Shown: positions 5,219-35,743 of the stretch, piece by piece
Position numbering within the stretch: the stretch's first letter is position 1
Layout of the letters: every line of letters begins with the position of its first letter
Virus record (IMG/VR): IMGVR_UViG_2728369181_000006
Location: 1 to 44,578 of that record
Strand: one strand, 5' to 3'
Source: a virus
Lineage: Duplodnaviria; Heunggongvirae; Uroviricota; Caudoviricetes
DNA length: 44,578 nucleotides
Translations under genes and position numbers: made by a program
The notes under the pieces: model-generated
Database searches by the model: none
Seen by the model: only the letters and a program-made list of their open reading frames with translations
What the model was told of the DNA's origin: nothing

Positions 5219-5290
5219 TCAATATTTCCTAATCCGATTTGTTGATACCGAAGCCCTGACTGTTCCCGCAGTTGGGGCTTCACTGTTTTG
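5219..5290 (+). ncRNA. sar: Candidate Sar-like antisense RNA covering the ant ribosome-binding region
   Basis: Plus-strand hairpin (gaagccc...gggcttc, about 5250-5282) followed by a T-rich tract, about 70 nt downstream of a weak promoter-like -10 tatact at 5206-5211. Geometry matches P22 sar, which is antisense to the ant RBS. Confidence 0.3.
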
Positions 5291-31522: not shown

Positions 31523-31732
<210 letters not shown>

Positions 31733-31749
31733 TTAGTACATGCAATTAT

Positions 31750-31813
31750 TATCACCGCTAGAGGTAAAATAGTCAACACGCACGGTGTTAGATATTTATC
31801 CCTTGCGGTGATA
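31750..31813. promoter_or_regulatory. OR: Right operator OR1-OR2-OR3 with divergent promoters PR and PRM
   Basis: Three 17-bp sites: tatcaccgctagaggta (OR1, 31750-31766), caacacgcacggtgtta (OR2, 31774-31790), tatcccttgcggtgata (OR3, 31797-31813). Confidence 0.85.
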
Positions 31814-31820
31814 GATTTAA

Positions 31821-32537
<717 letters not shown>

Positions 32538-32544
32538 CACGTAA

Positions 32545-32982
32545 ATGATTAAAGAACGTATTTCTTATATCATTCCGATTGCGATGGATGAAGGCAACCC
32601 CGTAACTCCAGTTCTTATCTATGAAATGGATAAAGACTCCCATGAAGTGGATCTGTCATTTGGCGCTTTTTTTATCGGCCTTAAGGCTACAAAAAAATAT
32701 TCCATAGGCATTGAGGTTTTCAATGCTCAAGAAATACCGATACCAATTGACACAAAACTGTACTCCAACCATAAGTTTTTTACGGTAGCAGAAGCCAACG
32801 ATGGAGAAACCATCGTATCAACTTCTATGAGAATTAACTTCCCAAGGGTGAAAATTATCAAGCCTGGGATATTCGAAGTTAGAGCATCACTGGTTAATCC
32901 TGAGAAAGGCGAAGTAATTGATGTAAAAAGTTCGTTTTTTGACGTGAAGATAACAGGATCAGTTCGCGATGAGTTTAGATAA
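32545..32982 (+). CDS. Hypothetical 145-aa protein, first gene of a cI-linked cassette at the rexA position
   Basis: ATG 8 nt after cI stop; no recognisable family; predicted soluble. Confidence 0.5.
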   Translation: MIKERISYIIPIAMDEGNPVTPVLIYEMDKDSHEVDLSFGAFFIGLKATKKYSIGIEVFNAQEIPIPIDTKLYSNHKFFTVAEANDGETIVSTSMRINFPRVKIIKPGIFEVRASLVNPEKGEVIDVKSSFFDVKITGSVRDEFR

Positions 32983-33292
32983 CAAGGTTACTCAGCTTCG
33001 TCCAAATCAAAACATATCTCGCCCAATTGGACACTATCCAACTGATGATGCATACTCACGGCATGGTGGCGGCAATGGCGGAGGTGATGATGTGCTTCAA
33101 AGAGTGAAAGAACTCGAAAAAGATGTTCAGCAAATGAAAACCGACCTGGCTGTCATGCGCTCGAATTATGCAACCAAATCAGACGTAAGCGACGCGAAAA
33201 CTTCGATAATTCTATGGGTTGTAGGTGCGGTCGTATCCTCACAACTCATACCAGCAATCCCCAAAATACTTGAAGTGTTTTTCCATAAATAA
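32969..33292 (+). CDS. Hypothetical 107-aa protein with coiled-coil and C-terminal TM helix (XhlA-like architecture), second gene of the cI-linked cassette
   Basis: ATG overlapping the upstream gene by 14 nt; Gly-rich N-terminus, LQRVKELEKDVQQMKTDLAVMRSNYATK coiled coil, hydrophobic tail SIILWVVGAVVSSQLIPAIPKIL. Confidence 0.5.
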   Translation: MSLDNKVTQLRPNQNISRPIGHYPTDDAYSRHGGGNGGGDDVLQRVKELEKDVQQMKTDLAVMRSNYATKSDVSDAKTSIILWVVGAVVSSQLIPAIPKILEVFFHK

Positions 33293-33295
33293 CAA

Positions 33296-33321
33296 CCCGG
33301 CCTCAGTGCCGGGTTTTCTTT
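33296..33321 (+). terminator. Rho-independent terminator ending the cI operon (timm-like)
   Basis: cccggc-ctcagt-gccggg followed by ttttctttg. Confidence 0.6.
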
Positions 33322-33473
33322 GCCTCTCGATCCCCACACCTAATAACACCATAACCAATTGTATTTATTGAAAAATTGATAGATACAACTTGCTAAACAG
33401 TGCAATTCTGATCCCTCACCTACCAAACAATGCACCCCTGCAAAAAATAAATCCATATAAAAAACATACAGAT

Positions 33474-33536
33474 AACCATCTGCGGTGATAAATTATCTCT
33501 GGCGGTGTTGACACATATACCACTAGCGGTGATACT
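33474..33536 (+). promoter_or_regulatory. OL: Left operator OL3-OL2-OL1 with promoter pL
   Basis: Sites aaccatctgcggtgata (33474-33490), tatctctggcggtgttg (33494-33510), taccactagcggtgata (33518-33534); -35 TTGACA 33508-33513 and -10 GATACT 33531-33536 with 17-bp spacer. Confidence 0.85.
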
Positions 33537-33616: not shown

Positions 33617-33735
33617 AAACAGATACCAAACGAGATGGGTTTGGCGGTGATGTGAATTGCAGCTGCAACGACAGCAACCAGAAGATCAGCATCTGGCGCA
33701 TCACCACCAAAGCCATTTCACATGAGGAAAACATC

Positions 33736-34077
33736 ATGACGGTAATCGTGTACGGAAAATCAACATTTGTAGGAAATGCCAAAACTCGCCGTCATGAGCG
33801 GCGCAGAAAGCTGGCTATCGAGCGTGATGCTATCTGTAACATCATTGATTCTATCTTCGGCACAGACAGTGAGGAACCTGTTCAGGAAGCCCCAAGAAAG
33901 CGTTTAAGCCTTTCTGAAAAAGCAATATCACTCGGAAGCCTTCGCTGCAAGAAGTCAAAGTCAGAAGAAGTCGAGCGTAAACAGAACCGTATTTACTACC
34001 GCAAGCCACGCAGTGAAATGGGTGTGACTTGTGTTGGTCGCCAGAAAATGAAATTAGGCAGCAAACCACTTATTTGA
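33736..34077 (+). CDS. N: Antiterminator N (P22 gene 24-type), 113 aa
   Basis: Arginine-rich motif GNAKTRRHERRRKLAIER at the N-terminus; C-terminus GVTCVGRQKMKLGSKPLI similar to lambda N; GAGGAA RBS; start at internal ATG 33736. Confidence 0.8.
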   Translation: MTVIVYGKSTFVGNAKTRRHERRRKLAIERDAICNIIDSIFGTDSEEPVQEAPRKRLSLSEKAISLGSLRCKKSKSEEVERKQNRIYYRKPRSEMGVTCVGRQKMKLGSKPLI

Positions 34078-34088
34078 GAGGAATTAAT

Positions 34089-34712
34089 ATGTCATCAATC
34101 CGCTTAACTACGAGAATGAAAGAGAAAATCGCTCGTAACGCTTTAATTAAGTCTGGGGTTTTCACTGAGCTTGAAGAAGTAACAAAGTTAAAGAACCAGC
34201 TTGCACTTGACGCCAGAGTTATTGCGTTTGGCGGTAAAAAGAAAACTGAGGAAGTGGATCAGTTATCATCCAAGTTGGTAGCTATAAGTGAAGAACTTGG
34301 AAAGATGGGATGTTCATTTTACTCATACGATTTTCGTTCTACTTCAATTTATCTGACTGTATCTGGCAGAAGGGTTGGATGGCATTCATATGAGAAAGAC
34401 GGCAACGGCGAAGATATATTTCTCCCTACTCCGATAAAAGATAAATGCATGTTTGACGCAGAGCACGAAATAACAAAAAGGTTTGATGAAATCTGCTCAT
34501 TACAACAAAAACTTGAAGCCAAGAAAAAGGATATCGAATCAAATGTATGGGCTGCTTTAAACTCAGTCACAACAGTTAAGCGACTTATTGAGGTTTGGCC
34601 TGAAAGCAAAGAGTTGCTACCAAAAGAAGCAGATAAAGCAAGTACAGCACTTCCTGCTTTACGGGTAGAAGATTTGAATAAGATGATTGGACTTCCTTCC
34701 GAGGCCGCATAG
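34089..34712 (+). CDS. Hypothetical early protein, 207 aa
   Basis: ATG 34089 with GAGAGGAA RBS directly after N; no recognisable family. Confidence 0.5.
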   Translation: MSSIRLTTRMKEKIARNALIKSGVFTELEEVTKLKNQLALDARVIAFGGKKKTEEVDQLSSKLVAISEELGKMGCSFYSYDFRSTSIYLTVSGRRVGWHSYEKDGNGEDIFLPTPIKDKCMFDAEHEITKRFDEICSLQQKLEAKKKDIESNVWAALNSVTTVKRLIEVWPESKELLPKEADKASTALPALRVEDLNKMIGLPSEAA

Positions 34713-34749
34713 TCGGCCTTTATTTTTGGCATAAACAACAGAGGCTAAC

Positions 34750-35046
34750 ATGGAATTTAAAGGTACTGAAGGTAAGTGGGAAATAATGATGGATGGCGAT
34801 GAGATTAAAATCATCCAGGCAGACTCACTTGAAAATGGCGCAGGCTGGCGTTCGTATATTGCAATCTGTGAGGAAGTTAAATGTATTGAAGATGCCAATC
34901 TAATAGCGGCAGCACCTGACCTTCTCGAAGCACTTCAGTTATTACTTAAGCAATCCAAAAATAGAACAACGACAACATATCCAGAATGGTATGGAGCTGT
35001 TAATAAAGGTCTTGCAGCAATCAGAAAAGCTCTTGGGGATAAGTAA
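34750..35046 (+). CDS. Hypothetical early protein, 98 aa
   Basis: ATG with AGAGG RBS. Confidence 0.45.
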   Translation: MEFKGTEGKWEIMMDGDEIKIIQADSLENGAGWRSYIAICEEVKCIEDANLIAAAPDLLEALQLLLKQSKNRTTTTYPEWYGAVNKGLAAIRKALGDK

Positions 35047-35234
35047 TGAAAGTAAAAATAACTGCTTCTAATACCAGTTTTGTTAGTGTTGGTGATATTA
35101 CAGAAGTAATAACAAACCATGATGGAACCCAAGTTATGTGGTCTGATTTTTGTAAAAGATATGAGCGAGTTAGTTGGTGTAAAAACGTATGGGGAGTCGA
35201 ATACGAAGAATTACCTGAAATGCATGACGAATAA
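35046..35234 (+). CDS. Hypothetical early protein, 62 aa
   Basis: TAATG overlap with upstream gene. Confidence 0.4.
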   Translation: MKVKITASNTSFVSVGDITEVITNHDGTQVMWSDFCKRYERVSWCKNVWGVEYEELPEMHDE

Positions 35235-35328
35235 GCACTGTGTATTCATCCAACGAGTGAATACACGGAGCAATGTCGCTCGTAACTAAACAGGAGCCGA
35301 CTTGTTCTGATTATTGGAAATCTTCTTT

Positions 35329-35355
35329 GCCCTCCAGTGTGAGGGCGATTTTTTA
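35329..35355 (+). terminator. Rho-independent terminator within the early-left operon
   Basis: gccctc-cagtgt-gagggc followed by gattttttat. Confidence 0.55.
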
Positions 35356-35374
35356 TCTGTGAGGATATGAACAG

Positions 35375-35743
35375 ATGTCAAACATCAAAAAATACATCAT
35401 TGATTACGACTGGAAAGCATCAATAGAAATTGAAATCGACCATGACGTAATGACAGAGGAAAAACTTCACCAGATTAATAATTTCTGGTCAGACTCTGAA
35501 TACCGACTCAATAAACACGGCGCTGTATTAAATGCTGTATTAATCATGCTGGCGCAACATGCTCTGCTTATAGCAATTTCGCAAGACTTAAATGCATATG
35601 GTGTTGTTTGTGAGTTCGACTGGGATGATGGAAATGGTCAGGAAGGATGGCCTCCAATGGATGGTAGTGAAGGAATAAGAATTACCGATATCGATACATC
35701 AGGAATATTTGATTCAGATGATATGACTATCAAAGCCGCCTGA
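35375..35743 (+). CDS. Hypothetical early protein with acidic C-terminal region, 122 aa
   Basis: ATG with GAGGA RBS; C-terminus rich in D/E/G. Confidence 0.45.
   Translation: MSNIKKYIIDYDWKASIEIEIDHDVMTEEKLHQINNFWSDSEYRLNKHGAVLNAVLIMLAQHALLIAISQDLNAYGVVCEFDWDDGNGQEGWPPMDGSEGIRITDIDTSGIFDSDDMTIKAA

Follow-up and report, generated by a model that had tools for sequence, protein, structure and literature searches.

Two genes downstream of the repressor of a P22-like prophage encode a beta-sandwich protein and a tail-anchored coiled-coil partner: a candidate exclusion system

The DNA sequence analyzed here, referred to as the window, is the 44,578 nucleotide (nt) IMG/VR record IMGVR_UViG_2728369181_000006, from a virus of the class Caudoviricetes. 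Directly downstream from its cI repressor gene it carries two small genes, here called A and B, which form the gene pair studied (Table 1). An earlier note made from the sequence alone had placed this pair at the position occupied by rexA-rexB in phage lambda, with a terminator and then OL/pL behind it, and this arrangement was confirmed: a terminator hairpin (33294-33315) follows gene B, and a pL-like promoter lies further downstream. The gap between cI and A is 7 nt rather than the 8 nt given in that note; the coupling of A and B through a 14-nt overlap was found as described.

The terminator hairpin is followed by UUUUCUUU and has a calculated dG of -14.3 kcal/mol (z -2.7 against shuffled sequences). 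The same stretch is 89% identical to the region of phage HK544 that bears the annotated Timm terminator, and the arrangement of the OR region around cro and cI also matches the annotated immunity region of HK544. The cI protein of the window is one that we take to be close to lambda cI. Judged from this layout, the interval 31777-31823 must hold pRM, which would drive cI-A-B.

Scanning of the + strand of the window yielded no terminator-like site in the cI-A interval or in the interior of A/B, so that co-transcription with cI is the natural reading. From the placement of the pair it follows that, in lysogens, pRM/pRE would transcribe it along with cI, so that A and B are probably expressed there. 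The GC content of gene A (37.9%, compared with 46.2% for the window) is as expected of acquired cargo.

Table 1. Features of the immunity region of the window and of gene B
Feature	Position	Strand	Basis or remarks
cro	31523-31723	-	
pR-like promoter	31748-31776	-	TTGACT-17-GATAAT, 10/12 matches (promoter scan); inside OR region, cro-cI interval
cI repressor, 237 aa, HTH_3 + Peptidase_S24	31824-32537	+	PF00717 E 5e-28, PF01381 E 4e-11, phrog_4
Gene A, 145 aa, predicted soluble eight-strand beta-sandwich, remote DUF6941 relative	32545-32982	+	
Gene B, 107 aa, predicted tail-anchored coiled-coil membrane protein	32969-33292	+	phrog_6324, 6136, 3556; 89 homologous clusters
B residues 1-32, variable N-terminal peptide	32969-33064	+	co-varies with A type
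GGGNGGG hinge, B residues 33-39, near-invariant	33065-33085	+	alignments; left junction of effector swap
Swappable sub-cassette, coiled-coil/transmembrane half of B	33075-33300	+	nucleotide comparison of window and L010
Coiled-coil region, B residues 42-78	33092-33202	+	helix in A-B fusion model (predicted)
YATKSD, candidate beta-layer motif in B	33167-33184	+	matches consensus except Tyr in first position
Single C-terminal transmembrane helix, B residues 79-97	33203-33259	+	Kyte-Doolittle 19-mer score 1.96
Intrinsic terminator (Timm equivalent), closing cI-A-B unit	33294-33323	+	8-bp stem, 6 GC pairs, T-run
pL-like promoter, start of N operon	33508-33536	+	TTGACA-17-GATACT, 10/12 matches; OL operators just upstream
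N	33736-34077	+	PF25694, E 7e-26

Gene A matched phrog_5893 (E 3e-64) and gene B three PHROGs, with E values from 2e-17 (phrog_6324) to 5e-12. Judged by these matches, by a ratio of nonsynonymous to synonymous substitution rates (dN/dS) of 0.115 between A and its epsilon34 homologue, and by the occurrence of homologues across several genera, A and B are real genes and not chance open reading frames (ORFs).

The product of A had been described in the earlier note as a soluble protein of 145 amino acids (aa) with no recognizable family. The first part of that description stands, since no hydrophobic transmembrane (TM) segment was detected in a Kyte-Doolittle scan; the second does not. The structure prediction returned a confident beta-sandwich of eight strands, in which no catalytic or enzyme signature was found, and A is regarded as a cytoplasmic protein with a generic binding fold. 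One strand of A, EKIAFxxP, is conserved. The top viral fold matches (BFVD, TM-score 0.65-0.69) were small proteins annotated without a function, the first of them from Anoxybacillus phage A403. When the A profile was compared with PDB sequences, weak matches to pilins and immunoglobulin-like (Ig-like) domains were obtained and nothing better.

The Firmicute relatives of A belong to Pfam family DUF6941 (PF22091). Profile-profile alignment (hhalign) of the enterobacterial A family with DUF6941 gave a probability of 98.5% and an E value of 4e-15 over 114 columns. The hidden Markov model (HMM) of the A family assigned 56 bits to true DUF6941 proteins of phages A403 and StB12, and phrog_5893 matched the A403 protein with E 2e-6. 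The Pfam DUF6941 model itself gave no match to the A protein of the window and only weak ones (E>=0.002) in 2 of the 68 enterobacterial A-family members. These profile and fold comparisons identify A as a remote homologue of DUF6941. DUF6941 genes, like A, precede a gene for a coiled-coil protein with a C-terminal TM helix; as the family has no known function, the link provides phylogenetic breadth and not a mechanism.

For the second protein, the description in the earlier note (107 aa, a Gly-rich N-terminus, a coiled coil and one C-terminal TM helix) was borne out. The hinge of B lies within the consensus H/Y-GGGNGGG-D-ML-R, and its coding sequence, CATGGTGGnGGnAATGGnGGnGGT, is kept across B types. 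In the dominant B type, the residues Y67, A68, T69, K70 and D72 are invariant and form the sequence N-Y-A-T-K-x-D immediately ahead of the membrane helix. The motif [aliphatic]-A-T-K-[polar]-[DE] has been described as the beta-layer motif of trimeric coiled coils and is also present in DUF1640 membrane proteins (Hartmann et al. 2016, PMC4786415). B differs from this consensus by a Tyr in the first position, where an aliphatic residue is expected. The best PDB match of the B profile was the Tcar0761 beta-layer construct 5apz (E 2.7e-4), and the other PDB matches were coiled-coil constructs. Given this motif, B may reasonably be supposed to form a trimeric parallel coiled coil.

The TM helix of B is followed by a short basic tail, and B is predicted to be a tail-anchored inner-membrane protein. 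The TM sequence of the dominant B type, SIILWVVGAVV..QLIPAIP, is kept across genera, which suggests that it is more than a passive anchor.

B-like C-terminal ends, KTDxAVxxSNYATKxD followed by a TM helix, were also observed in betaproteobacterial chromosomal proteins of Caballeronia, Pseudoduganella and Collimonas (L068 2509-3177; L084; L065). These proteins have neither an A partner nor a phage context, and one of them contains a long run of 'VLKTDV' heptad-like repeats.

The occurrence of the pair elsewhere, downstream from cI in other prophages, had been proposed as a check on the original observation; the outcome was strongly positive and reached beyond the lambdoid phages. In all of the 75 loci with an A-family HMM hit, the gene downstream from A codes for a coiled-coil protein with a C-terminal TM helix, and the two genes are coupled or overlapping everywhere except in one pair separated by 23 nt. 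At least four unrelated repressor types precede the pair: the lambda-type cI in E. coli, the epsilon34 gp46 type, a 130-aa Rac-type repressor with YdaS/YdaT in Kluyvera and a 226-aa S24 repressor in Pantoea. Distant A relatives (20-25% identity) are found behind further repressor types, with a partner of 137-195 aa and the same architecture.

Outside the Proteobacteria, the pair of Anoxybacillus phage A403 is located in the lysogeny module, between the repressor/ImmA genes and the integrase; GGDYML and SIATKDYV are present in the partner protein, as is a C-terminal TM helix. In Staphylococcus phage StB12 the pair lies 3' of the endolysin gene, which is the usual staphylococcal conversion locus. 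Chromosomal two-gene islets of low GC content were found in S. delphini and Mammaliicoccus; the S. delphini pair has 27.7% GC and its flanks 38-39%. This distribution indicates that A-B is inherited as a unit across phyla, from Enterobacterales to Bacillota.

The cassette is rare: gene A was present in 16 of 5426 complete E. coli genomes, the E. coli copies being 99-100% identical, and among deposited phages the cassette was found only in epsilon34, g341c and NM-3. Natural lysogens with A-B include E. coli LR-60 and E2348/69. A scan of viral contigs with the Kluyvera A type gave no match. Two decayed copies were observed, one with A frameshifted and B intact in an IMG/VR prophage (L053 3944-4437) and one with a premature stop in the B-type partner in an S. 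delphini genome (L109 3906-4310).

Co-variation of the two proteins was analyzed for 27 distinct A-B pairs by Mantel tests. The identity of A was correlated with that of the N-terminal part of B (rho 0.75) and much more weakly with that of the coiled-coil/TM half (rho 0.43). Some pairs of loci have A at 97-100% and the B N-terminus at 100% identity with a B C-terminus at 40%; in others, A is at 30%, the B N-terminus at 8-31% and the B C-terminus at 80-82%. At least four unrelated TM types were found behind a single A type.

The nucleotide comparison of the window with the E. coli prophage L010 placed the left junction of such an exchange at the glycine hinge. The two sequences are 100% identical from 31824 to approximately 33075, share approximately 40% identity from there to approximately 33300, at the terminator, and are 95-100% identical beyond. 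The co-variation suggests that A and B(1-32) have adapted to each other as one interaction module, in which B(1-32) would be the A-binding segment, and that the coiled-coil/TM half of B is an exchangeable effector, swapped independently at the Gly hinge.

B-type effectors also occur with an unrelated overlapping partner of approximately 113-129 aa, with paired CxxC motifs, in prophage cargo positions, and elsewhere alone. The CxxC partner corresponds to phrog_4293, has two CxxC pairs and is Zn-ribbon-like; it was seen in prophages of Salmonella diarizonae, Xenorhabdus and Providencia (L085 2505-3216, L071 2664-3285 and L067 2478-3210). In the Xenorhabdus prophage (L071), the pair is located between putative tailspike and ejection-protein genes, as read from their sequences. 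A solitary B-like gene was observed in Trabulsiella, apparently within a prophage tail/baseplate cluster (L061 2863-3294; neighbors judged by ORF sequence).

Between the repressor gene and pL lies the site best known for rexAB, a phage-exclusion system that has stayed unsolved longer than any other; BstA is encoded there too. Lambda RexA/RexB occupy the same slot as A-B, between cI and the immunity terminator and ahead of OL/pL, and are likewise encoded by two genes, expressed with the repressor, one for a soluble and one for a membrane product. The location of A-B between cI and Timm follows from the coordinates and from the homology of the terminator to HK544, and its expression with the repressor is predicted. 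RexB has four TM helices; B, in contrast, has a single hydrophobic segment (residues 79-97) and is not a polytopic channel subunit. Searches of A and B against Pfam, NCBIfam and PADLOC gave no match to RexA, RexB or any other family (E<=1-10), which agrees with the statement in the earlier note that neither protein resembles RexA or RexB.

BstA of the Salmonella prophage BTP1 is also encoded directly downstream from the prophage repressor, apparently sharing its promoter. BstA has been described as abortive-infection cargo, and the cI-N interval as a mosaic hotspot. Unlike A-B, BstA is a single protein that localizes to phage DNA replication sites and has a DNA-based self-immunity element; the sequences are unrelated. 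In HK544, a phage with lambda immunity (L104, EF120455.1, 1182-2021), a different two-gene cargo, coding for 92 and 182 aa, lies between cI and the same Timm. This pair is similar to ECs2991/ECs2992 and gave no Pfam or PADLOC match.

The reading that we consider most likely, with a probability of about 0.4, is that the prophage uses A-B for abortive exclusion, with one protein as a sensor and the other as a membrane effector; position and architecture are the grounds for it. According to this model, A would bind the N-terminal peptide of B at the cytoplasmic face of the membrane and would act as the specificity or sensor subunit, recognizing a product of the superinfecting phage. B, as the effector, would upon release or re-arrangement oligomerize and perturb the inner membrane, through depolarization or premature holin-like permeabilization, and the infection would be halted before progeny form.

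Several observations are consistent with this reading. The slot is a known cargo site, which houses rexAB in lambda, bstA in BTP1 and another pair in HK544. The A-B pair is mobile, modular, spread across phyla and, in lysogens, probably expressed. The fold of A is a generic binding fold with no enzyme signature, and all 75 A-bearing loci keep a TM partner, behind varied repressors. The pairing of B-type effectors with an unrelated Zn-ribbon-like partner in prophage cargo positions, the conservation across genera of the TM sequence of the dominant B type, and the action of XhlA-type proteins at the membrane together with holins are also in favor of an exclusion system.

Other observations weigh against it. 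In an AlphaFold2 model of the fusion A-(GGGGS)6-B the N-terminus of B was disordered (pLDDT, the predicted local distance difference test score, of approximately 40) and did not dock confidently on A, the model being a monomer built on a shallow paired alignment of 17 rows. No component of PADLOC-DB v2.0.0 matched A or B of the window or their enterobacterial relatives, and the Firmicute partners gave only low-scoring PADLOC matches, read as coiled-coil noise. The near-identity of the E. coli copies of A is unlike what a fast-evolving sensor would show. Cargo slots also house non-defense genes, so that guilt by location is weak evidence. Finally, XhlA proteins, the only experimentally studied proteins with the architecture of B, act in lysis by the phage that encodes them, which makes a non-defense role for A-B conceivable.

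XhlA (PF10779) of the Bacillus prophage PBSX and its relatives are small proteins in which a coiled coil at the N-terminus is combined with a single TM helix at the C-terminus. B has the same order of elements, a coiled coil and then a single C-terminal TM helix, within approximately 70-160 aa. The Pfam XhlA model gave no match to B of the window at E<=1 and matched 1 of 33 B-family members, an E. coli variant of 123 aa, with 21.6 bits (E 2.4e-4); the gathering threshold is 34.7 bits, and membership of B in the XhlA family was rejected on this ground. We know of no glycine hinge and no A-type partner in XhlA proteins. The N-Y-A-T-K-x-D sequence of B resembles, apart from its Tyr, the beta-layer consensus of the DUF1640/DUF3782 coiled coils (Hartmann et al. 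2016, PMC4786415); some B variants, for instance the 123-aa type, lack the beta-layer motif, and neither the DUF1640 nor the DUF3782 Pfam model matched B. B resembles XhlA and DUF1640 in architecture and passes neither Pfam threshold.

The resemblance to XhlA raises the possibility that A-B serves the prophage's own cycle, B waiting in the lysogen membrane as a holin partner or regulator of the XhlA kind and A acting as its cytoplasmic regulator, so that the pair would tune lysis timing or lytic commitment after induction. PBSX lysis requires XhlA together with the holin XhlB and the endolysin XlyA. Besides the sub-threshold match of the 123-aa variant, the A403 partner weakly matched a holin-annotated PHROG (E 2.4e-4), and the exchange of the coiled-coil/TM half alone might be explained by adjustment to holins of different types; a switch-assisting role has recently been reported for RexA/RexB. 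However, XhlA is encoded in a late lysis cassette with XhlB and XlyA, whereas A-B is located in the lysogenic operon, which is shut off on induction, and not in the late operon beside a holin. The lysis genes of the window lie roughly 10 kb from B, according to the ORF map, and the same pair occurs as chromosomal islets without nearby phage lysis genes. We consider a role in the prophage's own cycle, the main rival to exclusion, rather unlikely.

In lambda-like phages of Mannheimia haemolytica, a gene for a 161-aa, one-TM protein with an XhlA domain adjoins cI, no A-type gene being listed (PMC4553209, Table 2); it was interpreted by the authors as a possible virulence haemolysin (PMC4553209). 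In the NCBI annotation, the 123-aa E. coli B variant is likewise labeled 'hemolysin XhlA family'.

The label 'haemolysin' brings under one name the small XhlA proteins of phages and a Xenorhabdus haemolysin to which they are unrelated, and we rejected it for B as a naming artefact. This weakens the reading that A-B acts in lysogenic conversion of host physiology or virulence, unrelated to phages, for instance as a membrane-active 'haemolysin' or as a modifier of the envelope or O-antigen. A lacks a signal peptide and B is predicted to be tail-anchored, so that neither should be exported, and the Wzt similarity does not exceed the one to generic Ig-like domains. A conversion function appears very unlikely.

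A toxin-antitoxin-like addiction module, in which B would be a membrane toxin and A its protein antitoxin, stabilizing the prophage or islet with phage defense as a secondary effect, would also fit the small size of the unit, the translational coupling of its two genes and their order, in which the gene for the soluble protein comes first. The pair is mobile, low in GC and seen as isolated islets, and toxicity is conceivable for a protein like B. Loss of A should nevertheless be lethal if A were needed against a constitutively toxic B, and in the IMG/VR prophage L053 A is frameshifted while B is intact, although this is a single locus and may reflect a sequencing or assembly error. A also lacks a DNA-binding domain for autoregulation, and no toxin-antitoxin family was matched. 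We see only a slim chance for an addiction module.

Exclusion could, alternatively, be non-abortive: a membrane-tethered A-B might block DNA entry or the ejection-protein channel at the inner membrane, with an outcome like that of P22 SieA or HK97 gp15. B is a predicted membrane protein, and its expression in lysogens is predicted. The carriers are mostly P22-like and lambdoid phages, which must cross the inner membrane, and the B-like pair of the P22-like Xenorhabdus prophage lies in the putative ejection-protein/tailspike interval, which in P22 holds sieA/immI. On the other hand, the prediction puts almost the whole mass of A-B in the cytoplasm, few residues follow the TM helix in most variants, and the pair is also present in Gram-positive phages with very different entry routes. 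Furthermore, A and B have no Pfam similarity to the SieA, SieB or Imm families. A block of entry is in our view improbable.

Returning to the abortive exclusion system, it is possible, and we propose it tentatively, that A-B represents an unrecognized two-gene anti-phage family present in the prophage lysogeny operons of Enterobacterales and Bacillota. In this family, a DUF6941-type beta-sandwich sensor would attach to the N-terminal end of the membrane effector, a tail-anchored coiled-coil protein that is probably trimeric and whose effector half can be exchanged at the glycine hinge, a design unlike that of Rex, BstA and all catalogued systems. As repressor-operon cargo with a soluble and a membrane component, A-B has a substantial chance of being a new defense family.

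If this were true, A-B would give a first function to DUF6941, and would give a function to many small Gram-negative prophage proteins mislabeled 'hemolysin XhlA'. A third, unrelated pair of a soluble and a membrane protein in the repressor-pL slot would provide an experimentally easy handle on how prophages protect their hosts; the cassette, of less than 800 bp, is directly clonable and testable.

The gene pair itself was already known from phage epsilon34: the genome paper (2008) reported genes 44/45 in the repressor operon, downstream from the repressor, 'like rexA and rexB', without database matches. We did not meet in the literature the link to DUF6941 and the fold of A, the beta-layer/hinge architecture of B, the cross-phylum pair or the hinge-delimited effector swapping. 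Searches that included accession numbers and PHROG identifiers found no functional study of A or B, most subscription journals being outside their coverage, so that a published characterization is possible. Literature on HepS and SieA was set aside as unrelated to A-B.

Downstream from pL, the reading frame of N is open from a GTG codon at 33652 (33652-34077, + strand); the ATG at 33736 is the likely true start, since the Pfam N_peptide match begins there. The four genes 3' of N (34089-35743, + strand) correspond to PHROGs without known function (phrog_1965, 1273, 10407 and 646), and the early-left operon of this phage is largely uncharacterized. A sar RNA was identified at 5219-5284 of the window (+ strand; Rfam RF00262, 63.7 bits). 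The phage therefore carries a P22-type immI (ant/sar) region besides the lambda-type cI region, which marks it as a P22-like mosaic.

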